64,000 bases of DNA from an uncultured bacterium (lineage in GTDB: Bacteria > Verrucomicrobiota > Verrucomicrobiia > Limisphaerales > UBA8199). The notes below the pieces were generated by a model. The model did not search any database and was not told the origin of the DNA. It was given only the letters and a program-made list of their open reading frames with translations. Below, in pieces: positions 47,968-62,384 of this stretch (the first letter of the stretch is position 1; each line of letters begins with the position of its first letter). Location of the stretch: the NCBI GenBank assembly GCA_963749495.1, contig CAVVMW010000014.1, forward strand, positions 416,001-480,000, given 5' to 3'. Position numbers and translations under genes: made by a program.

Positions 47968-50900
47968 TCAGATTACGTCGAGTTCCCTGGCAGTGAACTT
48001 TCCGTATCTCAAGGCCAGTGTCGGCAGCACGAGCAGGTTCAGCACGGTGGAGGTCAGCAGTCCCCCGAGAATCACAATCGCCATCGGCCCTTCGATTTCG
48101 CGCCCCGCCTCACCCGCGCCGATGGCCAGGGGGAGCAACCCGAGCGCGGTGACGAGCGCGGTCATGAGGATGGGCAGCAACCGTTCGGAAGCGCCGCGAA
48201 TGGCGGCCTCGAGCCCCCACGTCAGGCCTTCCTGCTGCACCAGGTGCTCGAAATGCGAGATCATCATGATCGAGTTGCGGGTGGTGATGCCAAAGAGCGT
48301 GACGAAGCCGACCAGCGAGCCCAGCGAAAGCGAGCCGCCGGTCGCAAATACCGCCAGCACGCCTCCAATCAGGGCGAAGGGCATGTTGACAAGGACCAGC
48401 AGCAGGTTGCGCGGGGTGCGGAACACAATGCTGAGCAGCAAAACAATGCCCACCCCGGCAACGGCCGAGTGCAACAGCAACTCGCGCCTGGCCGAGGCTT
48501 GTGCCAGCCCGGAGCCGCCAAAAGTCGGATACACGCCGGGAGGAAACGAAACCTTGGCCGCTATCTGCTTTTTCATTTCCGCCACGAAGGACGCCATATC
48601 GCGTCCGGCAACGTTGCAGGTCACCTGTTGCCGGCGTTGCGCGCCATCATGGGCAATCAGGTAACGTCCGGTCGTAGGATAAATCTCGGCCAACTCGCGC
48701 AACGGCATCCGCTGCCCCTGGGAGTTGCGCAACAGCAACTCGCCAACTTGCTCCGGCGCCTTCCGGCTCGCTTCATCCAAAATCACGGTCACATCGAATA
48801 CCCGATTGCCGTCGTAGATTTGCGCAACCTCGGTGCCCTGACACGCGGTTTGAATTGCTTCCAGGACATCCACTGGCAGGAACCCAAACTGAGTCAATCG
48901 TTCGGGGCGCAACCGCATGACCATCTGTGGCGAACCGGGCTGCGACTCGACTTGCACATCCGCCGCGCCGCTGATCGTGGCAACCACCTGGCGCACCTCT
49001 CCGGCCTTTTGATCGAGCACATCCAGGTCGTCTCCGAAAATATTGACCGCCACCTGCGCAGTGGCGCCCGAAAGGGTCTCCTCGATGCGCTCAGCCAAAA
49101 AGGGCAGCACCCGGAAGGTCAAACCAGGAAACCTCTCCAGTGCTTGGCGGATTTCGCCAGCGACCCCTTCGGCCTCCTCACCGCTCAAAGGCTTCAAATC
49201 CACGTCCAGCTCGCTGTAATGCGTGCCCCAGGTGTCTTCGCCATTCTCCGCCCGGCCCGCTTGCTGCGAGACGGAACGGATGTGCGGATTTTTCAGCAGT
49301 TCCTCCGTGACCTGCCGGCCCAGGCGCAACGATGCCTCCAGCGATGTCCCAGGCAGAGCGGCCATGTGGATAATGAAATGGCCTTCGCGAAACTCGGGCA
49401 GGAATTCGCCCCCAAAGAACGGCAGCGTGGCCGCCGCCGCCAGGATCATCACCAGAGCCACGCCGATGACAGTGCGCGGCCGTCCGCTCAAAGTCCCCAG
49501 CCAGCGCCGATGGCGTTCTTTCATCCAGCGGACGTGCCGAGGCTTCTTCATGGGGGCTGGTCCGCGAGAGCATCCCCAGGCACAGCGCCGGGGTGAGAGT
49601 CAGGGCCACGGCCAGAGAGGCCAAAATCGCGAGAATGAACGCGGTCGCCAGGGGCGTGAACAGCTTTCCCTGAATGCCGGTCATGGTCAGGATTGGAAAA
49701 AACACCAGCGCAACGATGAATGTCGCATAGACCACGGCGCTGCGGACTTCCAGCGACGCTTCCAAGACCACTTGAAAAAGCGGACGCGGCTGAGCCCGGG
49801 CCAGGTTCTCCCGGATACGCCGCAGAATGTTCTCCACGTTGATAATCGCGTCATCCACCACCACACCGATGGCGATGGCAAAGCCACCCAGCGTGAGGGT
49901 GTTCAGCGAAACCCCGCAGCGATCGAGCACAATGACCGCCGCCAGCAACGAGAGCGGAATTGAGCTGAAGGAAATGAACGCGGTCCGCCAGTCCAGCAGA
50001 AAAAAGAGCAACACGGCCGCCACCAGGATGCCGCCGATCATCAGCGACTCGCCCACATTCCGAATCGAGGCCTCGATGAAGTTCGCCTGCCGAAACAGCC
50101 GCGGATGCACAGTGATTCTCTCGGAAACGAAAGCCGGCGCCATCTCCCCCAGCGCGCCCTCCACCGCCCGCGTCACCTCGATCGTATTCGCGCCATATTG
50201 GCTGTACACCTCGAGCACCACGCCGGGCTCGCCCAGGATCAACGCATCACCAAATTTCGGCTCCGGCCCCTCGGCGACCTTTGCCACGTCCTTCAAACGC
50301 ACGCTCGCGCCGTCATGGTGGGCCAGCACCACTTGGCCGAGTTGTTCCGCCGTGAGGGATTGTCCCTCCGTCCGCAGAATGATTCGCTGGTTGGCGTTGT
50401 CCATGAACCCCGCCCCGCGCACGGCGGTGGACTGCCGCGCCGCCGCCAGCACGTCTTCTAAAGCAAGGCCATGCTCCATCAGCAGGTTCGGGTTTGCTTG
50501 GACCTGAAGCTGCCGCACCTCGCCGCCGAAGACCTCCACTTTGGCGACCCCCGGCACTGCCAAAAGTCGCGGTCGCACCGTCCAATCCGCGAAGGCGCGC
50601 AGTTCCATCGCTGTGCGGTTGGTCGAAGTCAGTCCAAGGTTCAGCACCTTGCTCGTCGAAGAAATCAGCGGCCCCATTTTCGGGGCCTTAACGCGTTGCG
50701 GCAGTGAGCCCGCCACTTGGGTCAAACGCTCACTCACCATCTGGCGGACGCGGTAAATATCGGCGCGGTCCCTGAACACGGCCGTGATGGCCGAGAGCCC
50801 TTGAATTGATTCGGAACGAATCGCCACCAGGTTGGGCGCGCCGTTGATGCTGTGCTCGATCGGGCGCGTCACCAGCGCTTCCACTTCCTCGGGCGATAAT

Positions 50901-51063
50901 CCCGGCGCTTCGGTTTGGATGACCACTTGCGGCGGCGCGAACTCGGGAAAACGTCCAGTTTGGTGCGCTGTGCCACGTAAAGGCCATAAGCGAGGGCGGC
51001 ACACGCCAGCACAATGACCACGCCGCGATACCGCAATGAGAATTGAACGATCCGCCGGAGCAT
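47968..51063 (-). CDS. CusA/CzcA-family RND efflux permease (frameshifts at ~50945 and ~49550)
   Basis: Three ORFs (50869..51063, 49178..51151, 47968..49551) tile one permease: LDVFPEFAPPQV, GVVVDDAIINVEN, EFLPEFREG, ERLLPILMTA. Confidence 0.88.
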
Positions 51064-51068
51064 CGGGG

Positions 51069-52081
51069 TTAATCAAACATCTTGATCTGATATTTTTGCT
51101 CCTCGGAAAGGAGAACCTGCGCGCCCTGGACGACCACCGGCTGGTTCGCACTTACCCCTCTGCTCACGAACCACCCGTCCTCCAGGCGATGGTCGAGCGC
51201 TATTTCCCGGCGTGTGAAAGTGCCCTCCCCGGTTTGCAGATAGATCCAACCGCGGCCGGCGTGCCGCACCACGGCAGAGTCGGGAACGATGCACCCGCTC
51301 AACGGCCCACTCTTGAGTTGGAGGTAGCCGCTCGCCGCCCTTCCCGGAGAGAGTCGCTGTGAATTCGTTTTGACGAGAAACAAAAACCCCTGACCTTGCA
51401 TCTGTGGGTCAACATTTGGCGCCGGCCCCAGCCATTGCGCCGAAATGGAAGGGCTTTCAGCGGATGCCAGGACGATTCGCGCGCCGGCGGGGTTGCTTTC
51501 AGCATTTGGCCCGCTGGCAGGTCAATCCGCACCAGCGCGCTCTCCAGCGAAGCCAGCGACCGCACAAAAACCGCGAGGTCCGGCTGCTCCGCAATCGCGG
51601 TCCCCCACGCCGACACCAGTCGGAGATGCACGGATTCCACGGCAATGTGATCGCGTTGCGCAGTCGCTTCCACCGCTTGCAGCGCCCGGTCGGAAGCATT
51701 CGCCTGCTCATTGAGCCGCTTCACTCGCTCGAATTCCTTCTCTGACGCCGCCGCGGCAGCCTCAGCGGAAGCCAGTTCGGCCACCAGTGCAACGAGCGGC
51801 GAGGGATCCATCACACGCGCAAATCCTCTCACCTCCGGGCTTAGCATGGCAGGTCTGAGGGGTTCGGCTTGCAGCGCGATTTTTGCCTGAGCTTCTCGCT
51901 CCAACGTCAGGATGATTTCGCCGTTCGCCCCAGACGTGACGCGCGATTTCGCAACGACGGGCCTCTCGCGTTCCGCTTCGGCCTGCCGTTCCGCGCTCAT
52001 TTTGAGAAAGGCGAAGACTAAAGCGCCCATGGCGCCTATTGCCACAAGCAGAACCAGGGCGGTCTTGAGGCTGTTTTTCAT
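51069..52081 (-). CDS. RND periplasmic adaptor-like protein (frameshift at ~51490)
   Basis: N-terminal TM, coiled-coil hairpin; adding one C gives ATPAGARIV...VDPQMQGQ, VPDSAVV, GAQVLLSEE. Confidence 0.8.
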
Positions 52082-52461: not shown

Positions 52462-54161
52462 TCAGGACAACTTCGCCCCGGCAAGCGTCTTGGACCCCCG
52501 CTCCGCCGGCAAGCCCGCCACCCGCAAGAGCGCGCCCGCCGCCTCCAAGTCCCTAATGGCCTCCCGCAGCCGCGGTTCATCCGACTTTGTCCGCGCCAGC
52601 GTTTGCTCCAGCGCCGCCAGTTGGTCCCGCGCCTGTTGTTCCGCCTGCCGGCTCAATTCCGCGATGCCCGTTGCCACCCGCTCACCCCAGTCCGCCGCCA
52701 GCCGCGACAGGTTTTTCTCCACTTCCCACCGTGCCTTACGCGTCAGCACACGCCCAAGCGGCCTGCGAAACACCCTCAACGGCACGACCCAACCAATCGC
52801 GCTGAACGCCACGTCGAAAGCATAAGCCACGTCCACCGGCGGTGCGGCTGGCTGCCGCACCTCCAGGGCGAACTCGCGCGGCGTCAGCGGCAAACCAAGC
52901 GCGTCCTTCACCTGCGCCGCCAGCCGGTCATCAAACGCGCGCAACGCTCGCTTGAGGTGCTCCCGAACCAGGCTCAACGGCTCGCAAAACATCCCTTGCT
53001 GCTCGCACGACACTTCGCCCATCTCGCGCTTCAGGAAAACGCCCAGCCACTCCCTCCAGCCGGCCGAGACCCCGAAAGCGTTCGGGGCAGTGGCCGGCCA
53101 TCCAGCCGCCCGCCCAATTCGGTCGTCACTTTCGCCTGCAACCTCCGCTGTGTTGGCTGCAACCGCTCCAGCGATTGCTCCAGCGCCTTCGCCGACCACT
53201 CCCGTGCCATCACCTGCAGCTCCTCCCGGAACAACCCGAACTGCCGTCGCTCCTCCGCCAGCCGCCCGCGCAACGCCTGCCGCGCGGATTCCGTCTGCGT
53301 TGCCGCCGCCAACCCCACGCGCAGATAATCCTGCGCCTGGCTGACGACCGAAGCCAGTTTGTGCCGCAGAATTGCCCCCGCCGCTTCGCCACCGCCCTGG
53401 CGCAGCGGCAGCAGCAGCCGTCCCACGAACTCCTCCCGGAGCGCCGCCAGCGCCGGCTTGACCGAGTAGAAGAACACCGACAGGCCGCCATCCCATTTTT
53501 CATCCAACTGTCCCCGCACGAACGCCAGTACCTCTCCCCGCTGCGCTTCCGTCAGCAGGTCAGCCTTTGTCAGCAGGAGCACGATCTTCGGTGTCTGCCG
53601 GCGCAACTCTTCGTGCAACGCCAGGTCGCGCTCGGACAGCGGCGCATCCGAGCTCACCGCCACTAGCGCGGCGCCTACATTCGGCAGCCATTTCATCGCC
53701 GCCTCTGTGTTGTGCCGGAACGCGCTCCCCAAACCTGGCGTGTCCACAAATTGCAGAGGCGCCAGGCCCTCCAGCGCGGGCAACTCCACTTCCACCGACG
53801 CCACCTGCTTCCAGTTTTCGTGATTCTGGTTCTCGCCCACGAACAGCCCGATGTCCTTCACCGGAATCACCTCCGCCCGCCCATCCAGGTAGCAGACCTC
53901 CGCCCGCTCCACCGGTCCAAAGCGCAGCCGCGTAATGACCGCTGTCAGCGGCACCACCCCGATCGGCAGCACGTCCCGTCCGGCCAGGTGGTTCAGAAAC
54001 GAACTCTTCCCCGCCTTGAACCGCCCGAACACGGCCACGTCAATTCCGTGGTCCCCCTCCATCAGCCCCTTGCAGGCCGCGATCTGCGGCCGGAGGTTCG
54101 CCAGCTTGAACTGCTCCGCCAGACCGGAAACTCGTTCGAGAATACCGCTTGTGGGGGTCAT
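52462..54161 (-). CDS. Bacterial dynamin-like GTPase B (frameshift at ~53050-53110)
   Basis: G1 GRFKAGKSS, G2 PLT, G3 DTPG, G4 TKAD, then a long helical stalk continuing in ORF 52462..53496 (WEVEKNLSRLAADW). Confidence 0.85.
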
Positions 54162-54162
54162 T

Positions 54163-55299
54163 TCAGATATGCTTGTTGTCGCTCTCGTCCTTGACCGTGT
54201 AGCCCGAGTCCTGGCGCTGGAGGTTGACTACGTGCTTCTTGGTATAGGCTTCGAACAATTCATTAGGTGTCATCCCCATCACTTGCGCGAGCGAAATCAG
54301 GAAGTGCAGCAAATCCACGATTTCCACGCGGGCATTTTGTTTGTCGAATTTCTGGTAGTTCGCCCACCACTTCCATGGCACGCAGTCAACCAACTCCGCT
54401 AGCTCCTGGTCCACTGCCCGGCAGTAGTTCAGCATCCATTGCTGGCGCTGGGCGTCATCCATTTTATCCGTATCGACCCCGATCCGGCGGTTGAGCAATT
54501 TCTGGAGGTAAAATATCGCCTCCAATTTGTCAGGGTGCTTTTGGCAGTACGCGCTGAAAAGCTCTTCCGCAGTTTGGTCCAGCGGCAAATGCCCGCCCGT
54601 GCGCAACACTTCGGCCAGCGTGTCCACAACGCGCGGCTCAAGCCGCAGGCCACGATACGCCGCAACCGTTTTCTCGACGTTGTAGGCAGCCCGGCGCAGG
54701 GTGACCTCGCCGTCGTCCCATATTGCGTATGCCGCGCGCGGGTCGCCGTCTTTGGGCTGGCCGACGCTGCCGGGGTTAACCACGAGCGTCCGGCGGAAGC
54801 GCGTCTTCATCGGCAGGTGCGTGTGACCGAGAAACAGGAAGTCCGGGTATTTCACGGTATTCAATTCCGACTCCCAGAGCGTGACCGGGCTGTTTTCCGG
54901 CAGGTAAAGATAGAGCGGGTCCGCGGGCACGGCGTGGCAAGCCACACATATAGCGGAATCAAGCTGGAATCGTTGCAAAGGCTGCAGCCCGGCCAGGAAT
55001 TGTTTCATCTCTGCCGTCAGGACTTGTTGGCTCGCCGCCTGGGTAGCCGCTGCCAGCGCCTGGTAAGCTGCCGAGGAGCGAGAACCCTCGTCCAGTGCAA
55101 CAGCGCGGTCATGGTTGCCTTGCACCAGCCAATCGGGGGTAAGGCTCTGCATCGCCCAGGCCACGCATTCTGCCGGCTGCGGCCCGTAGTTGACCAGGTC
55201 CCCCAGGCACAGAATCTGGTCAATCTGCGGTTCGGCGGCCAAGACAGCTTGCAGGGCGGGCCAGTTGCCGTGAACGTCCGAGATAAGCAATATCTTCAT
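54163..55299 (-). CDS. Metallophosphoesterase (YfcE-like) fused to a dimeric all-alpha dUTPase-like domain
   Basis: SDVHGN, GDLVNYG, GNHD, GHTH, NPGSVGQP; C-terminal ELAELVDCVPWKWW, VEIVDLLHF, YTKKHVVNLQRQDSGY; one uninterrupted ORF. Confidence 0.85.
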   Translation of the reverse strand: MKILLISDVHGNWPALQAVLAAEPQIDQILCLGDLVNYGPQPAECVAWAMQSLTPDWLVQGNHDRAVALDEGSRSSAAYQALAAATQAASQQVLTAEMKQFLAGLQPLQRFQLDSAICVACHAVPADPLYLYLPENSPVTLWESELNTVKYPDFLFLGHTHLPMKTRFRRTLVVNPGSVGQPKDGDPRAAYAIWDDGEVTLRRAAYNVEKTVAAYRGLRLEPRVVDTLAEVLRTGGHLPLDQTAEELFSAYCQKHPDKLEAIFYLQKLLNRRIGVDTDKMDDAQRQQWMLNYCRAVDQELAELVDCVPWKWWANYQKFDKQNARVEIVDLLHFLISLAQVMGMTPNELFEAYTKKHVVNLQRQDSGYTVKDESDNKHI

Positions 55300-56208
55300 A
55301 ACTCGCTACCACAATGAATGCGGTCTGTTTCGCAGCGTTGTGCCATTACCTGCTCCATTAAGTCTCCGATGCTCTGCTGCTGTGCGGGCGGGAACTCCAC
55401 CCGGATTGTTTCGCCGCCGCCTGCCGCGCGGATTTCCAGTTCGAGCTGGGCCAACCGGTCGTTGGCCCGAACCCGGTAACTTTCCAGCCGAGACAGCGGA
55501 CAGTAAGTTACGACGTCGCCGTACTTGTCGGACCGACCGACACGCAACCACGACCAGGTTTTCTCGTCCGAAATCAGAATCAACTCGCGCTCGGTGAGCA
55601 CCAGCATGGCCTGTGGCGCCAGCTCACGCTCAAACCATCGCCTTGCTCTGCCCCTAACGGCTGGCCAGGGCCGCGCGGCCAAGACGCGTTGCGACAAGGG
55701 CCTGAATTCGTGGACAGCATTCCAGAACCTCAACGGTGTCCCCTGAAGCAGCGCATTTAGGCTTCTGTCCTCTATGGGAATGGTTCCGCGGACTCCACTC
55801 ATGCCATCCAACACCTGCCGCGCCGCCTCCCTGTAAACCCGTTCCATGACTGCATTGAATTCGATCATCGCCGACTGCGTGACCCCATCGGTCGCGTAAT
55901 CGAGTTTCAGCCGTCCATAGAGCAGAATCACGGTCAATTCCACGAGCATCGTGTCAACGAAGGCAGCGCGCGCGAGGCGAGGCGGCATTTCTTCCGCGCC
56001 GCTCACAAGCACCCATTCGTCATCGAGCACGGCCAGCAGAGTCGCGGGCGAACACTGGCCGAGCGTTTTGGCGGCTGGGCCGAAGATCATCAACTGGAGC
56101 CGCTGGCCGCCCTCCAGCGCGGCTGACATGGCGCTGCGCAGCGGTTCGGGGGCTTCTTCCACCGTACCTAAGCCGGCAGGCAAATCTATCCCAAAGGAAT
56201 TTCTTCAT
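55296..56208 (-). CDS. Hypothetical protein (probable frameshift at ~56166)
   Basis: 295 aa ORF whose stop overlaps the phosphoesterase ATG; the upstream ATG (MKKFLWDRF) joins by removing one base. Confidence 0.65.
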
Positions 56209-56309: not shown

Positions 56310-58352
56310 TCACCTTCCTGCCGCCGGTTCTGCGGCCGGATATGTCGCCAACCGTCTCAGGTCGGCTTCAACGCTCGTCACGTCAGTTTCGGCGACGGCA
56401 GTGGCTGCCCGCGCTTCCAACTGGGCACTCAGCAGCCCGGCGCGGGCCGCAAACGCATCTCGAAGTTCCAACAACGATTGTCGAAACCACTGCCGCACTT
56501 GCCGGCGGTAGGAATTGAGCAAGTCTGGCAGTGTCTCACCAAGGTGTTGTTCCAATCGCGAGCGGGTGTGGCGGCGCAAGACCGCCGCGCCCAATGACGA
56601 CAGCAACACGGGTCGTTTCAGAACGAGGTTTTGGGTGAACGCCTCGGTGTCGGCGATCGGCGCGCCCGCAGGCGGGGGCAGTTGCTCGGACGTGTCTATT
56701 GCCAACCGCAGTGCCTGGTGAGCCAGTTGCAGTGCCTGGCCCAGTTGCCACCTCATCGAAGACAACTGTCTCACCAATTTCGCCACCCTTTCCGCCAGGA
56801 CCCGGTGCATGGAAAGCGACATTCCCTTGGCGATGGCCGCGCTTTTTCCCCCGGCGGAGAGCCAGAAGTCCGCGAGGTCTGCCGCCGCAGCCTCGATGAG
56901 GTCGTCGGCCAGCGTGGAGAAGCCGTCCACGATGGCGTCACCCTCCCGCTGCGCGGCCTCCAACAGGGCGTCGGCTTTCCGCACGGCGGCCAGGGCCTCC
57001 TGGACGCACTGGCCGGACGGCGCTGGGGACACGTGGGAACTGCGTTGGAGGCGGCTTTCGAGAACCGCGATGACCGCTTCGCGCAACGCGCCCACTTTGC
57101 GTTTCTGCGCGGCAGCGGCTTGCTCGAGACGCGATTCGACCAGCGGCATCAATTCCTCTTCCAGCCATTCGTCGCAGAGAGCGGCACTTTCGCCGAGCAC
57201 GCTAACGAAGTGCGCCCGGAGTTTCAGGTTCGCTTGTGCGGAGAGTTGACGCTCGACGTAATCGCCGGTCTGCCGGCGCTCGGCAGCCCCCAGCAGATCC
57301 GCTTTGCTCACCAGCACCATCGCCTGTGCACCCGACTGGTAGAGGGCATGGACAATGGTCAAATCCTCGTGGGTGATGGTCGAGCCGGCGTCCACCAGCA
57401 CGATGCCCAGGTCGCACCGCGGCAAATAGGCAGCCGTCTCTTCGGCGCCAGCCGTAGCGAGCGAACCCAGTCCCGGCGTATCGACGAATGTCACCCCCTC
57501 GCGCAATCGCGGCGAGGGCAGTTGCGCGCTAATGCGTACGACATGCTTGGCATTCCCTGGATTCTGCTGTTCCGTTACAAACTCCGCCAGACGAGAAAGT
57601 TCGACCACTTGCGGCTTGCCTTCGGCAAACGCGATAATGGCCCGAGCTTCGGCGCCGTAGCTCACCCGGGTGGAAAAGCCGTCACCGGGGTGACGCCCAC
57701 GGGTAAAACCGTGTTCCCCAGCAGATAGTTCAATAGCGACGACTTGCCCGAGCTGACGCGTCCGAATACCCCGATTTCAAAGACCTGGTTTTCCAACCTC
57801 TCCAGCAACATCGCCAAGGCGCTGCGAAATTCGATCAAGCCGTGGGCCGTGACCACGCGCTCCAATTCGCGCAGGAGCCTGGCCTGATCGGTCGTTTTCT
57901 CCAGCCGCGCAAGGCGAGCCTGCAGGTCGGCATCCGGACCCTTGTTCCAGTAAGCGATAAGCCGTTCGAGCGTTGCGTTCAACTCGGCGACCACTTCGTT
58001 GATCGCCTTGACGTCCTCCTCGCTCAAAACGCCGTAGCCGCGCATGCGCTGCGGCTCCATTTCCGCCACCGCAATCTGAGCAAACGTGAATCGCCCGCCC
58101 GCAGCCCACATCGCTCCGCACACGGGAGTGGGCCGGGGCAGTCGGAGGTCGGTCAGGGCACGGTTCATCGCCTGCCGCACCCGCTCGATGTAGTCGTGCA
58201 ACACCTTGCGCTGCACGGGAGTTGAATCCTGGGTGTATTCCGCGAAAGGGGACGTTCGAGCCGGCGGTTGCCAGAATGTGCTCGGCTTCGGACAGGAGAT
58301 TGTCGATGTGCCGGAACGTGGTGAGCAGGTGTCGCTCGTGATTCTCGTTCAT
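56310..58352 (-). CDS. Bacterial dynamin-like GTPase A (frameshifts at ~58255 and ~57672)
   Basis: N-terminal helical extension, G1 GRVSSGKSS, G2 PVT, G3 DTPG, G4 SKAD, helical stalk; three ORFs join to about 680 aa. Confidence 0.85.
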
Positions 58353-59089
58353 GTCAGGGGGAAGATCTCGTGGATGCGCCGATCCAGATCGAGACGCCGG
58401 AGGGCGTAAGGATTGCTGAGATCGTACTTGCCGGTTGCCAGTTCTTCAAAGAGCTCCCGCAGCACCAGTGGGCTGCCTGCTGATCTCCGGTGCAGCCACT
58501 CGACAATGGTGGCCGCCTCAGGGGGAATGAGGGCCGCCTTCAGCGCCGCCTCGACCATTTCCTGCGTCTCCGACAAATGAAACGGGTGCAACTCAACTCG
58601 AGCAAACCGCACCAGCATCGGCCAGAAATGGCCGATGTCCCACGAATGCTCCGAACGCGCGCAAATCCAGACCGGCGCCCCTTGAGCGATGCGCTCGAAG
58701 AACGAACTCAGTTTGGGTGTGGTCCAGCCGACCCCATCAAAAACAACCGTCCTGCCCGCCGCGCGCAGCGATTCCCGCAGCCGCTGCTTGCGCTGGAGGA
58801 GCTTCATCTCCGCGGCATCCAACCCCAGTTGCGGTTCGAGGCTGTCGCAAATCTCTCCCCAATGTGCCGATTTGGGTGAAACCAGCAGCGCGAGGGAATC
58901 GCGCAGATGCGCAACCAGTGCCGACTTCCCGACGCCGGCCTGGCCAAGAATGAGCGCATGCTTGTGTTCCGCACACAGTTCGCAAAGCCGCGCCATTTCT
59001 TTGCGCCGCGCCGCGAATGGAAGAGATATGAGAATGTGACCCGACGTTTCCGCTGGCCTCTTGCTCAGGACTTGTTTCGGCGTTGCCAT
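58349..59089 (-). CDS. Small P-loop ATPase (AAA-like)
   Basis: Walker A GQAGVGKS, Walker B VVFD, SAGSPL; stop overlaps the dynamin A ATG. Confidence 0.8.
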   Translation of the reverse strand: MATPKQVLSKRPAETSGHILISLPFAARRKEMARLCELCAEHKHALILGQAGVGKSALVAHLRDSLALLVSPKSAHWGEICDSLEPQLGLDAAEMKLLQRKQRLRESLRAAGRTVVFDGVGWTTPKLSSFFERIAQGAPVWICARSEHSWDIGHFWPMLVRFARVELHPFHLSETQEMVEAALKAALIPPEAATIVEWLHRRSAGSPLVLRELFEELATGKYDLSNPYALRRLDLDRRIHEIFPLT

Positions 59090-59121
59090 AACTCACTACC
59101 GTTGCGAACAATATCGTTTCG

Positions 59122-59187
59122 GTAGGAGTCGTCAGCCCAAGGGCGGTTTGCCCCGAACCCGTTCGGGGGCAGGCAAACTCCATTGCC
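59122..59187 (-). ncRNA. Fluoride riboswitch (crcB motif) 2
   Basis: Minus strand GGCAATGGAGTTTGCC-[hairpin]-AAACCGCCCTTGGGCTGACGACTCCTAC: P1 GGCAA/TTGCC, pseudoknot GGAGT/ACTCC; 32 nt upstream of the ATPase ATG. Confidence 0.92.
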
Positions 59188-59223
59188 TTTGACACACTAT
59201 CACCCGTTAGCGGCGGACAGGAA

Positions 59224-60525
59224 CTACCTCCGGCTCCCGAACAATGCGCCTCCGTATTGCGCCTTCTTGCCCAGCTCCCGCTCGATGGCCAGCAGCCGGT
59301 TGTATTTGGCGATGCGTTCGGACCGGCACGCCGACCCTGTCTTGATCTGCCCCGCGCCCGTCCCCACCGCAAGGTCCGCGATAAACGCGTCTTCGGTCTC
59401 GCCCGACCGATGCGAAATCACAGCGCCGTAACCGGCCTTCTGCGCCATCGATACTGTCTCCAGTGTCTCGGACACGGTGCCGATCTGATTCAGTTTGATC
59501 AGGATTGCGTTGGCGATTCCATCGCGGATGCCCTCCGCGAAGATTTTCGGGTTGGTCACGAAGTTGTCATCGCCCACGAGTTGCATCTTCCTGCCCAGCG
59601 CCTTCGTGAGCGCCTTCCACCCCTCGCGGTCCTCTTCGCCCATCCCGTCCTCCAGCGAGACGATGGGATATTTCCTCGCCCACTCGGCCCACAACGCCAC
59701 CAGCTCCGCAGGCGTCTTGCGCGACCCGTCCGATTTTTTCATCACGTAAGCGCCCTCGTCCCAAAACTCGCTGGCTGCCGGGTCCAGGGCGATGGCAATT
59801 TGTTTGCCCGCCTGGTAACCCGCCGTTCCGATAGCCTCCAGAATCACGTCCACCGCTTCCGTGTTGGTCTTTAGGTTCGGCGCGAAGCCACCCTCGTCGC
59901 CAACGGCCGTCACCAACCCGCGTTTCTGCAAAAGCTTCTTGAGCGTGTGAAACGTCTCCGTCCCATACCGCAGCGCCTCGGCAAACGTCGGCGCCCCAAT
60001 CGGGAAGAGCATGAATTCCTGGAAATCCACATTGTTGGTCGCATGCGCCCCGCCGTTCAGGACGTTCATCATCGGCGCAGGCAGCACATAGAGCGCGTTC
60101 TCTTCCCCGCCGAAAAGCCTCCGAATGTGCGTGTAGAGGGGCGAAGCCGACTCCGTAGCCGCCGCCCGGCACGCCGCCATCGAAACGCCCAGAATGGCAT
60201 TCGCTCCCAGCTTCGCTTTGGTCTCCGTCCCGTCCAGCTCGCACATCATTCTGTCAATCTCCTTTTGCTCCTGCGGCGATTTCCCCTGCAGCCTCGGCGC
60301 AATCACCGTGTTGACGTTCGCCACCGCTTTCAACACACCCTTGCCGCCATACCGCTTCGGCTCCTGGTCCCGCAACTCCACGGCTTCCCGGATGCCCGTG
60401 GAGGCGCCCGATGGGACGCTCGCCGACGCTGTAATGCCGTTCGACAAAACGACCGTTACCGAAACGGTCGGATTGCCCCGCGAGTCGAGAATTTCCAATG
60501 CGCTGATGTTTTCTATGGTGTTCAT
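59224..60525 (-). CDS. eno: Enolase
   Basis: [74 protein letters not shown]. Confidence 0.97.
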
Positions 60526-60544
60526 ATCGAGTCCTGTTCTGTGG

Positions 60545-61015
60545 TTATTCAATTTCACCGGGACTGGTTTGGTCCCCGGGAAGTTCATCGGGCTGTTTGA
60601 CGATGAGCACGCTGCAATGGGCGTGGTCACTAATCCGGTCCGCCGTGTCGCCGAGCAGGCGTCCCCAAAGCTCCGAGTGATCGCTGTGGCCGACGACGAT
60701 GAGGTCGTAGCCGGCGCTGTTGGCGAAGGTCACCATTACCTTGGCGGCATGGCCGGCGCGGCTCTCGCAGCCGATGGCGATGCCAAAGCGTTGGGCCACC
60801 TTCTCGACTTCGTGCTTGCGCTCCTGGAAGTAATCGCGCGCGGCATCGGCTTCGCCTTCCGCTTCCCCGGGCAAGTCCGCATGGCGCGGCAGTGGCTGCC
60901 GCACCCAGAGCGCCGTCAATTGCCCGCCGCCCTCACGGGCCAGTGCCGCCGCGCGTTCCAGCGCCGCCCGCCCGCCTTTCGATCCGTCGTAACCGACCAG
61001 GATTTTCCGGAACAT
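60545..61015 (-). CDS. Universal stress protein
   Basis: [44 protein letters not shown]. Confidence 0.93.
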
Positions 61016-61022
61016 AATCGCT

Positions 61023-62243
61023 TCACTTTCCCAGGGGCTGAGGTTGGACTTTCACCCTGCCGTTGAGCTTCCGCTGATAAAGCCGGCCCCAGGCCTGCAT
61101 CGTCCGCCGGGACGGCTCGAAGAACTTCGGCGCGATGACGGTGGGCACAAACGCGCTCAGAATGACGACCGTGACGAGGATGGAATACTGCTTCTGGTCA
61201 ATGATCCTGTTTTGCAGCCCGAACAGGGCAGAGATTGTGCCGAAGGTCAGGCCTGTGGACATGAGCAGCGTCGTGTAATTGGCCTCTCGCGGCCGCATGA
61301 AGTATTTCCGGCACAACGGCAGCACGCCCACGAGCTTGGTGGCCATCTTGAGCGCCAGGAGCGCCAGGATAACGCCCGAGGCCGCCGCCAGCGCGCGGAG
61401 CGACACGAACGAACCGGCGCGGATGAAGTAAAAAGGGGTGAAGACCGCGAAGGCGATGCTGCGCATCCGGTGCACCAGTGTCTTGTCGCGCAGGAACACA
61501 CCGGCCACAACCAGGCCGAGGAGGTAGGCGGGGAGCACCGCCTCGCTCTTGGCCGTCAAGGCCAGCCCGCCCAGGAAGAAGAGCACGAGGAAAATGAACT
61601 TAATCTCCGGCTCGCTCGCCCGGGTGGCCCCCAAGCGCACGACGATGTACTGGGTCCACCTGGGCATAAACCACAGCGTCACGCAGGTAACGATGACGAA
61701 CACCAGCAGCCAGACGTTGAAATTGGCGAAAATGAGGCCCAGTGCCAGCACTGTGCCAAGGTCGTTGATGAAACACGCCGCCAGAATCATCTTGCCCAGG
61801 GCCGTCTCGCCTTGCCGCGTCTCAATCATCACGGCATAGACCACGGCGACGGAAGTCGTCGAGAGGGCTATGCCGGCGATTTGGGCCTGGTGAAGGGGCC
61901 AGCCGAGGGCAAACCGCGCGAAGGCCCAGACTCCCGCGAAGGGCAGGAGAAATGCCGCAGTGCCGATGGCCATGCTCGCGCGCAGGTTGGCCCGGAGGGA
62001 TACCGGGTCAATCTCCGCTCCGGCCAGGAAGGTCAGCACGCCACTGCCGAGCATGGCCAGGAAATTGGTCCAATCGGTGGAGCGCAGCAGTGGTTGGCCG
62101 CCGCCCAGGTGGAGGTTGCCCGCAACGACGCCGACGAAGATCTCGGTCAACGCCACCGAGATGCCCAACCGAATCGAGGTGAGGCTGGCTACCAACGCCA
62201 ACCCCATCCAGAGTGCTGCAATAAACCAGATATTCTCAGACAT
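61023..62243 (-). CDS. Cation:proton antiporter (CPA2 / Na+/H+ exchanger family)
   Basis: Many TM segments; LTFLAGAEID, ALSTTSVAVV, AACFINDLGTV, PFYFIRAG; start at MSENIW after GGGAG. Confidence 0.9.
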   Translation of the reverse strand: MSENIWFIAALWMGLALVASLTSIRLGISVALTEIFVGVVAGNLHLGGGQPLLRSTDWTNFLAMLGSGVLTFLAGAEIDPVSLRANLRASMAIGTAAFLLPFAGVWAFARFALGWPLHQAQIAGIALSTTSVAVVYAVMIETRQGETALGKMILAACFINDLGTVLALGLIFANFNVWLLVFVIVTCVTLWFMPRWTQYIVVRLGATRASEPEIKFIFLVLFFLGGLALTAKSEAVLPAYLLGLVVAGVFLRDKTLVHRMRSIAFAVFTPFYFIRAGSFVSLRALAAASGVILALLALKMATKLVGVLPLCRKYFMRPREANYTTLLMSTGLTFGTISALFGLQNRIIDQKQYSILVTVVILSAFVPTVIAPKFFEPSRRTMQAWGRLYQRKLNGRVKVQPQPLGK

Positions 62244-62274
62244 AACTCCCACCTCGCCACATCCTGTGGCGCTG

Positions 62275-62349
62275 GTAGGAGTCATCAGCACTGAAACCGT
62301 TCAGGCGGTTTTCCCCGAAGCCCTTGAGGGGAAGGCAAACTCCATTGCC
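62275..62349 (-). ncRNA. Fluoride riboswitch (crcB motif) 1
   Basis: Minus strand GGCAATGGAGTTTGCC-[hairpin]-AACCGCC-[stem]-GCTGATGACTCCTAC; upstream of antiporter, USP and enolase, which are known riboswitch-associated gene classes. Confidence 0.95.
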
Positions 62350-62355
62350 ACAGTA

Positions 62356-62384
62356 ATTCTGGCCCGCAATGCCCACGCTGGCAA
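62356..62384 (-). promoter_or_regulatory. Sigma70-like promoter for the riboswitch 1 transcript
   Basis: TTGCCA - 17 nt - CAGAAT, ending 6 nt before the first G of the aptamer. Confidence 0.65.

Follow-up and report, generated by a model that had tools for sequence, protein, structure and literature searches.

A conserved metallophosphoesterase-dUTPase-like fusion gene of Limisphaerales-type Verrucomicrobiota, predicted to be controlled by a fluoride riboswitch

The DNA analysed here (the window) is a stretch of 64,000 nucleotides from an uncultured bacterium of the Verrucomicrobiota (GTDB lineage Limisphaerales, UBA8199), corresponding to positions 416,001 to 480,000 of contig CAVVMW010000014.1 in the assembly GCA_963749495.1. 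A gene of 378 codons, located on the minus strand between positions 54163 and 55299 of the window, joins an N-terminal metallophosphoesterase (MPE) to a short C-terminal domain of the dimeric dUTPase type (C-domain). The gene is a real, conserved fusion, and its architecture is rare. It resides in an operon headed by a fluoride riboswitch, and as judged by comparison of related loci it likely encodes an undescribed enzyme of the bacterial fluoride-stress response. The reading favoured here, which we regard as moderately probable, is that an MPE of the SapH/YfcE binuclear type and a short dimeric-dUTPase-type domain would work together as a fluoride-switched enzyme.

The open reading frame (ORF) has zero internal stops, and both halves of the protein were recognised by Pfam. 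Metallophos_2 matches residues 1-194 (E-value 2.4e-20, 73.5 bits, cut-off 27), dUTPase_2 matches residues 258-338 and a second stretch (E-value 1.7e-20, 74.4 bits, cut-off 22.9). NCBIfam models gave sub-threshold matches only, to YfcE-type phosphodiesterases and an epsilonproteobacterial dUTPase. In the AlphaFold model the mean per-residue confidence (pLDDT) is 87.3, and two well-folded domains flank a low-confidence stretch at residues 242-246. The helix modelled at residues 244-254, in and next to the linker, is extra with respect to stand-alone dUTPase-like proteins, and in relatives carrying two separate genes the linker position is where the MPE gene stops and the dUTPase gene starts. A sequence-only reading of the window had claimed one clean ORF of 378 amino acids (aa) with MPE and dUTPase-like domains, and all the motifs quoted at that time were located in the minus-strand frame. 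The junction, placed by the same reading at about 54530-54600, agrees with the linker, and is crossed gap-free by contigs of two other public runs, X3 record 15 (54454-54921) and X4 record 22 (54487-54987). A near-identical contig of X1 covers 54557-54707. Contigs of other public runs are fragmentary, and the parts which they leave uncovered are uninformative; no RNA run covering the stretch was among those listed.

The same frame recurs in other assemblies. In the search made with the whole protein, both Pfam domains are carried by 79 of the 120 best clusters listed, with lengths of 366-387 aa; 6 further clusters (379-394 aa) have MPE labels only, and the remainder consists of fragments and of proteins of about 245 aa with the MPE part only. 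The full fusion frame was found in 10 loci from species-representative genomes (L001-L010), at 73-85% identity. Metagenome contigs contributed 57 loci, 7 of which proved to be two-gene forms; in the other 50 the fusion is present or cut by the contig end. Several metagenome loci are near-duplicates, and their counts do not equal numbers of independent events. The architecture is unusual, as had been supposed: in a library of 1.84 billion proteins, representatives of clusters formed at 50% identity, both domains are spanned by one of the 150 best representatives (P0006, 86% identity). The others match either residues 1 to about 240 or residues from about 253 to 378, and Pfam found both domains together in none of 15 longer representatives taken from the same 150. 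Named fusion records are metagenome-assembled genomes of Verrucomicrobiota/Limisphaerales, many from bog, palsa and peat, and the range of the fusion is narrow, being made by Limisphaerales-type Verrucomicrobiota of peat, bog and sediment assemblies.

It is extremely improbable that two genes were joined by an error of assembly or gene calling. Frameshift-like breaks do occur in adjoining genes of the assembly, and relatives with a two-gene form exist, as such an artefact might lead one to expect. Against it stand the recurrence of the frame, with a conserved linker, in the 10 species-level genomes, the 79 protein clusters and the 50 metagenome loci, and the contigs bridging the junction. The fusion gene is intact; both dynamin-like GTPase genes of the operon read as frameshifted. 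Neither two separate genes or a misassembly, nor a common architecture unlinked to fluoride, the outcomes named beforehand as speaking against the sequence-only reading, was encountered; bridging contigs, recurrence, rarity and riboswitch association all point the other way.

The MPE half features the motifs SDVHGN (residues 7-12), LGDLVNYG (32-39), GNHD (61-64), ACHA (120-123) and GHTH (158-161). Metal ligands of calcineurin-like phosphoesterases reside in the motifs DxH, GD, GNH(D/E), H and GHxH, and the set is complete in the window's protein (D8-H10, G33-D34, G61-N62-H63-D64, H122, G158-H159-T160-H161). In a set of 20 fused orthologues, D8, H10, D34, N62, H63, H122, H159 and H161 never vary. 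Foldseek recognised a beta-sandwich phosphoesterase fold, and matched 3rqz and SapH with probability 1.00 and a target TM-score of about 0.8. By motifs and fold, this half is a complete calcineurin-type MPE with intact active-site motifs, and is predicted to be an active hydrolase. These two are the closest among solved proteins. The protein 3rqz is an uncharacterised MPE from Sphaerobacter (sequence E-value 3e-29 over residues 1-229, Foldseek E-value 1e-18); Spr1479/SapH from Streptococcus pneumoniae (3qfm/3qfn; Foldseek E-value 1e-15, target TM-score 0.81) is called in its PDB title an asymmetric Ap4A hydrolase and phosphodiesterase. Both fall in the same subfamily as the MPE half, sharing a helical insert with it (target TM-scores 0.78-0.82, 26-33% identity), but are stand-alone proteins of about 250 aa, and we know of no link to fluoride for either. 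Escherichia coli YfcE (1su1; COG0622 phosphodiesterases) has the Metallophos_2 motif set in common with the MPE half, but is more distant (E-value 5e-11, Foldseek TM-score 0.61), and lacks the helical insert and the C-terminal tail. Stand-alone MPE paralogues, each with its own riboswitch, were identified in L002, L008, L009 and L010.

The motifs of the C-domain are ELAEL (residues 299-303), PWKWW (308-312), EIVDLLHF (326-333) and NLQRQDSGY (359-367), and the window's protein also retains, unbroken, the wider patterns QExAEL, PWKWW, ExxDxxHF and KKHxVNxxRQxxGY. In dimeric dUTPases the ExxE and ExxD residues bind metal, and WKWW, HF and RQxxGY are involved in base stacking. E299, E302, E326, D329, W309-W312, H332, F333, R362, Q363, G366 and Y367 are invariant in the 20 fused orthologues, and align with the Leishmania major enzyme. 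All catalytic and base-binding motifs of the domain are kept in 52 of 57 fused loci, as in the window. The 126 residues were modelled as a four-helix, all-alpha NTP pyrophosphatase (pLDDT 89.4), and Foldseek matched the model to trypanosomatid and Campylobacter jejuni dimeric dUTPases, DCTPP1, iMazG and DR2231, with weak E-values (0.09-1) and probability of about 1. Solved dimeric dUTPases (PF08761; C. jejuni 1w2y, L. major 2cje/2yay, Trypanosoma cruzi 1ogk) share with the C-domain the all-alpha fold and the motifs ExxEL, PWKWW, ExxDxxHF and KxxxNxxRQxxGY (sequence E-values 1e-10 to 4e-9; 28-36% identity in structural alignments). They measure 229-290 aa, in contrast to the about 126 residues of the C-domain, which, unlike them, is fused to a phosphoesterase and placed under a fluoride riboswitch. 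The dUTPase_2 profile, 162 positions long, is matched only at positions 1-79 and 131-162, so that the full two-part architecture of dimeric dUTPases is not found. MazG and DCTPP1 (RS21-C6), house-cleaning NTP pyrophosphatases, have the same size and four-helix core (target TM-scores 0.64-0.71), but are only 18-22% identical to the C-domain, whose motifs are those of dUTPase_2; Pfam models for MazG-like and PRA-PH proteins stayed below their cut-offs. The C-domain may thus be likened in function to solved dimeric dUTPases, of which it is not a full family member, and dUTPase activity is predicted for it.

A link of the gene to fluoride had been proposed from the sequence alone, and the comparison of loci bears it out. 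A fluoride riboswitch aptamer marks the head of the operon, whose minus-strand genes follow each other closely between 59089 and 52531. Same-strand riboswitches scoring above the Rfam gathering score were found upstream of the fusion in 10 of 10 fused genome loci. The aptamer ends 18-26 nucleotides (nt) 5' of the fusion ATG in L002, L003 and L005; in L008-L010 an MPE paralogue comes first behind the riboswitch and the fusion second; riboswitch and fusion are separated by one to three genes in L001, L004, L006 and L007. A riboswitch is also found upstream in 43 of the 50 fused or contig-cut metagenome loci, with the aptamer 19-29 nt before the ATG in 26, at 61-1500 nt in 10, and at 1.5-5.8 kb in 7. 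Loci with no match include 2 with at least 4.7 kb of upstream DNA and 5 with less than 1.1 kb. The corresponding figures for the 7 metagenome loci with two adjacent genes are 4, 0 and 1, plus one locus without a match having at least 4.7 kb upstream and one having less than 1.1 kb.

Riboswitches are nearly absent from loci which hold the stand-alone domain only. A covariance model built from 18 of the loci's aptamers was run on 80 genome loci, and matched 14 of them (L001-L011, L014, L017, L031). No match to this model was found in the other 66, all of which carry the stand-alone domain only; put differently, 3 of the 69 loci with a stand-alone domain only have a riboswitch. Rfam's own model found no riboswitch in 7 stand-alone loci from other classes. 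The fluoride link is therefore strongly supported by comparison, being conserved in fused relatives and nearly missing from stand-alone paralogues, and the fusion gene is predicted, from the position of the riboswitch, to be induced by fluoride. Sequestering hairpins were predicted for the riboswitch of the window and, in L002, L003 and L005, ahead of the fused gene (-13.4 to -21 kcal/mol, z -2.5 to -4.0). In these structures the 3' strand of the aptamer can pair with a stretch holding the ribosome-binding region and the start codon; in the window, it pairs with the stretch just 5' of the start codon of the first operon gene. The predicted hairpins suggest a translational ON switch.

Stand-alone genes homologous to the C-domain are widespread. 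Of the 80 genome loci, 69 match only residues from about 256 to 378, at 62-78% identity, and the corresponding genes, about 126 aa long, reside in Verrucomicrobiia, Opitutales, Kiritimatiellia and Lentisphaerae. Their surroundings, sampled in 16 loci, have nothing to do with fluoride, and include rpoA/rplQ, thioredoxin-reductase-like genes and a GAF histidine kinase. Long open frames (238-795 aa) in L015, L038, L040, L042 and L045 were considered as other fusions and rejected, being stop-free extensions in GC-rich DNA; the true start in all five is M..PDKL, and the length about 126 aa. The genome which includes the window (the own genome) has a separate stand-alone copy (L082:1378-1758, contig C27), 57% identical to the C-domain, and a separate copy accompanies the fusion in 4 of 5 genomes of relatives. 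Only conservative changes (S306C, V327I, L341M, D347E, S375N) distinguish fused from stand-alone C-domains. Because no more than these five separate them, the two most likely perform the same chemistry. The fused domain appears, from this comparison, to be a near-unchanged extra copy of the stand-alone 126-aa gene, which goes beyond what had been read from the window alone.

The stand-alone copy of the own genome is itself atypical. Gln replaces the first metal-binding Glu (QQVAEL), and His replaces the Gln of RQxxGY, at positions which hardly vary among 40 aligned sequences and which four relatives retain in their stand-alone copies; its branch in the tree is long (0.69). A ribonucleotide-reductase-like ORF flanks this copy, but tblastn found no match to it in the 80 loci or in L085-L088, and the adjacency is not conserved. 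The sole match to trimeric dUTPase (PF00692) in the own genome (29.9 bits, L084:934-1965, contig C1) was considered as a housekeeping dut gene and rejected. The encoded protein, 343 aa long, has a weakly dUTPase/dCTP-deaminase-like N-terminal part, followed by a coiled coil and a hydrophobic membrane tail.

A tree of C-domains was drawn from 81 rows; L007, which has a degenerate domain matching over less than 100 residues, was omitted. Fused domains form a single clade (support 98/95). Its sister is made by L014 and L031, in which an MPE gene adjoins a separate dUTPase-like gene. The next sister rows, L011 and L017, have a stand-alone dUTPase-like gene set within a fluoride operon, without an adjacent MPE, preceded by an MFS or Na+/H+ exchanger gene and followed by an AAA_16 or enolase gene. 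The whole riboswitch-linked clade (14 rows, support 100/99) is nested among Verrucomicrobiia stand-alone genes. Unfused adjacent pairs, likewise not foreseen from the window, were found in 8 loci (L014, L143, L145, L147, L148, L161, L170, L171). Here the MPE gene measures 248-253 aa, and between its stop codon and the ATG of the next gene, which starts with M(N/G)KPDKL, there is either a distance of 0-9 nt or an overlap. These arrangements indicate that the fusion originated from a translationally coupled pair of MPE and dUTPase genes. The most economical path would be that a duplicate of the stand-alone gene entered the fluoride regulon, became coupled to an MPE gene, and was finally fused to it, once. 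The L014 module (riboswitch, MPE, dUTPase-like gene, dynamin, FGE, HAD) lies on a contig labelled Candidatus Aquilonibacter (Vulcanimicrobiota), which may reflect either gene transfer or a binning error.

In the favoured reading, the fluoride riboswitch would turn the fusion gene on. The C-terminal half would hydrolyse dUTP/dUDP. The N-terminal half would cleave a second substrate, a phosphoanhydride or phosphodiester, which might be the pyrophosphate set free or a dinucleoside polyphosphate. The fusion would be an extra, fluoride-inducible copy of the 126-aa dUTPase-like enzyme of the lineage, joined to an MPE which seems to have been itself repeatedly placed behind fluoride riboswitches, and nucleotide house-cleaning would continue while fluoride poisons Mg-dependent phosphoryl-transfer enzymes. 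By analogy, the logic of the fusion would parallel that of the extra enolase copies found in the same islands. Phosphatases, pyrophosphatase and enolase are frequent fluoride-riboswitch cargo, perhaps serving to overcome the inhibition of phosphoryl-transfer enzymes, according to PMC11139923, and many Nudix nucleotide hydrolases are reported in PMC2248764 to be inhibited by 3-20 uM fluoride.

Several observations weigh against this reading. Nothing in the C-domain corresponds to profile positions 80-130 of dimeric dUTPases and, because of this, specificity for dUTP is not assured. Catalytic Glu/Asp residues of the dUTPase-like domain are replaced, while MPE motifs are kept, in 5 of 57 fused loci (L006, L144, L007, L110, L115), and the same loss is seen in the protein clusters P0076, P0078, P0083 and P0087; since the catalytic acids are lost in these loci and clusters, dUTPase chemistry appears to be dispensable in some lineages, and the MPE may be the constant player, the dUTPase half a lineage accessory. 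In the window, 3.8 kb separate the fusion gene from the riboswitch, with a dynamin gene read as frameshifted in between, and no riboswitch was found in the two fused metagenome loci having at least 4.7 kb of upstream DNA. Sensitivity to fluoride may, in addition, extend to binuclear phosphoesterases and Mg-dependent NTP pyrophosphatases themselves. Degenerate C-domains feature, for example, QQAARL, PWRWW or a lost RQxxGY motif, and several still reside directly behind a riboswitch.

Loss of the catalytic residues next to intact MPE motifs would also fit a scheme in which the MPE is the working part, together with the adjacent dynamin-like GTPase, and the dUTPase-like half serves mainly as a dimerising or nucleotide-binding scaffold, dUTP hydrolysis not being the selected function. 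Of 55 fused loci with sufficient downstream sequence, 38 have a dynamin-like GTPase gene starting within 150 nt of the fusion, as does the window, and the other 17 have none; the usual presence of this gene behind the fusion is a further point absent from the sequence-only reading. The riboswitches owned by MPE paralogues in L002, L008, L009 and L010 go in the same direction. The scheme is nevertheless unlikely, as dUTPase-like motifs are all kept in the window and in the remaining 52 fused loci, and the stand-alone dUTPase-like paralogues of L011 and L017 were recruited to fluoride operons without an adjacent MPE. An anti-phage module, in which nucleotide depletion would be combined with dynamin-like proteins as in Eleos/Leo systems, and which would do no more than lie near fluoride genes, is highly improbable. 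The flanking GTPases weakly match LeoA (E-value 2.2e-9) and LeoBC in PADLOC, but the match of the fusion protein is marginal (E-value 0.0013), and the PADLOC scan gave no convincing defence assignment. In 26 of 50 fused metagenome loci the gene follows the riboswitch directly, and the genes around it are of the kinds classically found as fluoride cargo (enolase, Na+/H+ exchanger, Usp, CrcB, DUF190).

The two halves might otherwise catalyse consecutive reactions, the C-domain freeing pyrophosphate from dUTP and the fused MPE acting as a fluoride-tolerant pyrophosphatase which removes it on site. The sequence-only reading had suggested that dUTP hydrolysis could be coupled to the removal of PPi or dUMP, or that the protein could sanitise nucleotides under fluoride stress. 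Fusion following translational coupling suggests consecutive steps or a complex. A family I soluble pyrophosphatase (PF00719) was not found in the own genome, 88% complete, in which two matches to membrane H+-PPases only were detected; pyrophosphatase is among the commonest riboswitch cargo elsewhere, according to PMC11139923, and none was seen in the islands read. The incompleteness of the genome counts against such a couple, as do the occurrence of MPE paralogues alone and the PDB titles returned for the 3rqz/SapH/YfcE group, which name no pyrophosphatase, and we consider it quite unlikely. A similarly low probability is given to a broader proposal, in which the control of dUTP, and hence of uracil in DNA, would be an unrecognised target of fluoride toxicity, met in peat Verrucomicrobia by the riboswitch-induced enzyme: its dUTPase half would keep dUTP low, and the MPE would be a fluoride-tolerant pyrophosphatase replacing the soluble enzyme not found in the genome.

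Features of the operon and of the adjoining riboswitch unit are listed in Table 1.

Table 1. Positions in the window of the fusion gene, its parts and the surrounding fluoride-island features
Feature	Positions	Strand	Basis or remark
MPE-dUTPase_2 fusion gene, 378 aa	54163..55299	minus	ATG start, stop codon 54163-54165; ORF and Pfam
MPE domain, residues 1-235, 3rqz/SapH subfamily	54595..55299	minus	Pfam, fold and sequence matches
Linker, residues 236-252	54544..54594	minus	AlphaFold model, alignment
Short dimeric-dUTPase-type all-alpha NTP-pyrophosphatase domain, residues 253-378	54166..54543	minus	Pfam, alignment, fold
Fluoride riboswitch aptamer, operon head	59116..59196	minus	Rfam RF01734, 51.1 bits (gathering score 34)
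Predicted expression platform hairpin	59083..59135	minus	-17.7 kcal/mol, z -3.7
Small AAA_16-like P-loop protein, first operon gene, 246 aa	58349..59089	minus	Pfam
Dynamin-like GTPase 1 (orthologues about 676 aa)	56331..58352	minus	Three frame segments, i.e. two frameshifts
295-aa protein without Pfam family	55296..56183	minus	Stop region overlaps fusion start by 4 nt
Dynamin-like GTPase 2 (orthologues 545-569 aa)	52531..54161	minus	One frameshift near 53061-53103
Second fluoride riboswitch of the island	62269..62358	minus	Rfam
Na+/H+ exchanger, behind second riboswitch	61023..62291	minus	
Usp, behind second riboswitch	60545..61015	minus	
Enolase, behind second riboswitch	59224..60630	minus	

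The operon order is AAA_16-like protein, dynamin-like GTPase 1, 295-aa protein, fusion, dynamin-like GTPase 2, and the start codon of the last gene ends 1 nt past the stop codon of the fusion. Frame breaks in dynamin-like GTPase 1 lie near 58245-58252 and 57671-57698, and, as the one in dynamin-like GTPase 2, are each found beside short homopolymers. An RND pump gene (47968-51151) is likewise split, into ORFs 49178-51151 and 47968-49551. Breaks in neighbour genes may be due either to indel errors of long reads or to real decay. Homologues of the 295-aa protein reside at L002:17238-18062 (51% identity) and L004:12470-13318 (38%), the latter directly behind a fluoride riboswitch (L004:12273-12347). 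Look-alikes in the atlas are hypothetical proteins from Verrucomicrobiota and Chloroflexota, and there are faint pointers to PH-like domains of bacteria. By its genomic company, the 295-aa protein appears to be another uncharacterised fluoride-cargo protein.

The own genome has five fluoride riboswitches, all on the contig of the window, and three enolases, two of which lie beside riboswitches. Riboswitches other than those of Table 1 map at 480458-480547, 636344-636427 and 640103-640183 of this contig (C14), the first about 460 bases past the window end. A second island, at about 636-641 kb, includes a partial CrcB match, the third enolase and a fragment of 64 aa which shares 68% identity with the beginning of the MPE domain. 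Islands in L002, L008-L011, L014, L031 and others are unusually rich, with up to 4-5 riboswitches in about 20 kb. Recurrent cargo is represented by FGE-sulfatase-like proteins, HAD hydrolases, MutS domain V pairs, M20 peptidase, CMAS-like methyltransferase, DUF6062, MFS transporters, MoxR ATPase, and extra MPE copies with their own riboswitches.

Fluoride-riboswitch cargo includes, according to PMC11139923, extra enolase, pyrophosphatase and HAD-type phosphatases. The fusion is likewise placed behind RF01734, and is likewise an extra copy of a housekeeping-type enzyme. Islands carrying the fusion hold enolase, Na+/H+ exchanger, Usp, CrcB, DUF190 and MutS-like genes, as found with fluoride cargo. 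Neither a dUTPase-like enzyme nor this MPE subfamily is named as cargo in the part of PMC11139923 considered or in the literature searched. No description of the fusion was met in that literature, which covered MPE, dUTPase and dynamin with fluoride riboswitch, dimeric dUTPase with fluoride, and PF08761. Both domain superfamilies and the fluoride riboswitch are known. Measured against that literature, what is new is the architecture and where it came from, the finding of a dUTPase-type enzyme and of this MPE subfamily among fluoride cargo, and their association with a dynamin-like GTPase.

Fluoride is known to be countered by exporters, by homeostasis of pH and ions, and by additional copies of a few of the enzymes which it poisons (enolase and pyrophosphatase). 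If the favoured reading is true, a conserved nucleotide hydrolase under direct riboswitch control would add the hygiene of the nucleotide pool to the processes threatened by fluoride, and the fusion protein is a defined, easily expressed object on which this idea may be tested. The passage from recruited copy to coupled pair to fusion would provide a clean natural example of a gene fusion marking a functional link. The regular company of a dynamin-like GTPase gene points to a broader module of the fluoride response, so far uncharacterised, in hosts known mostly from peat, bog and sediment assemblies.

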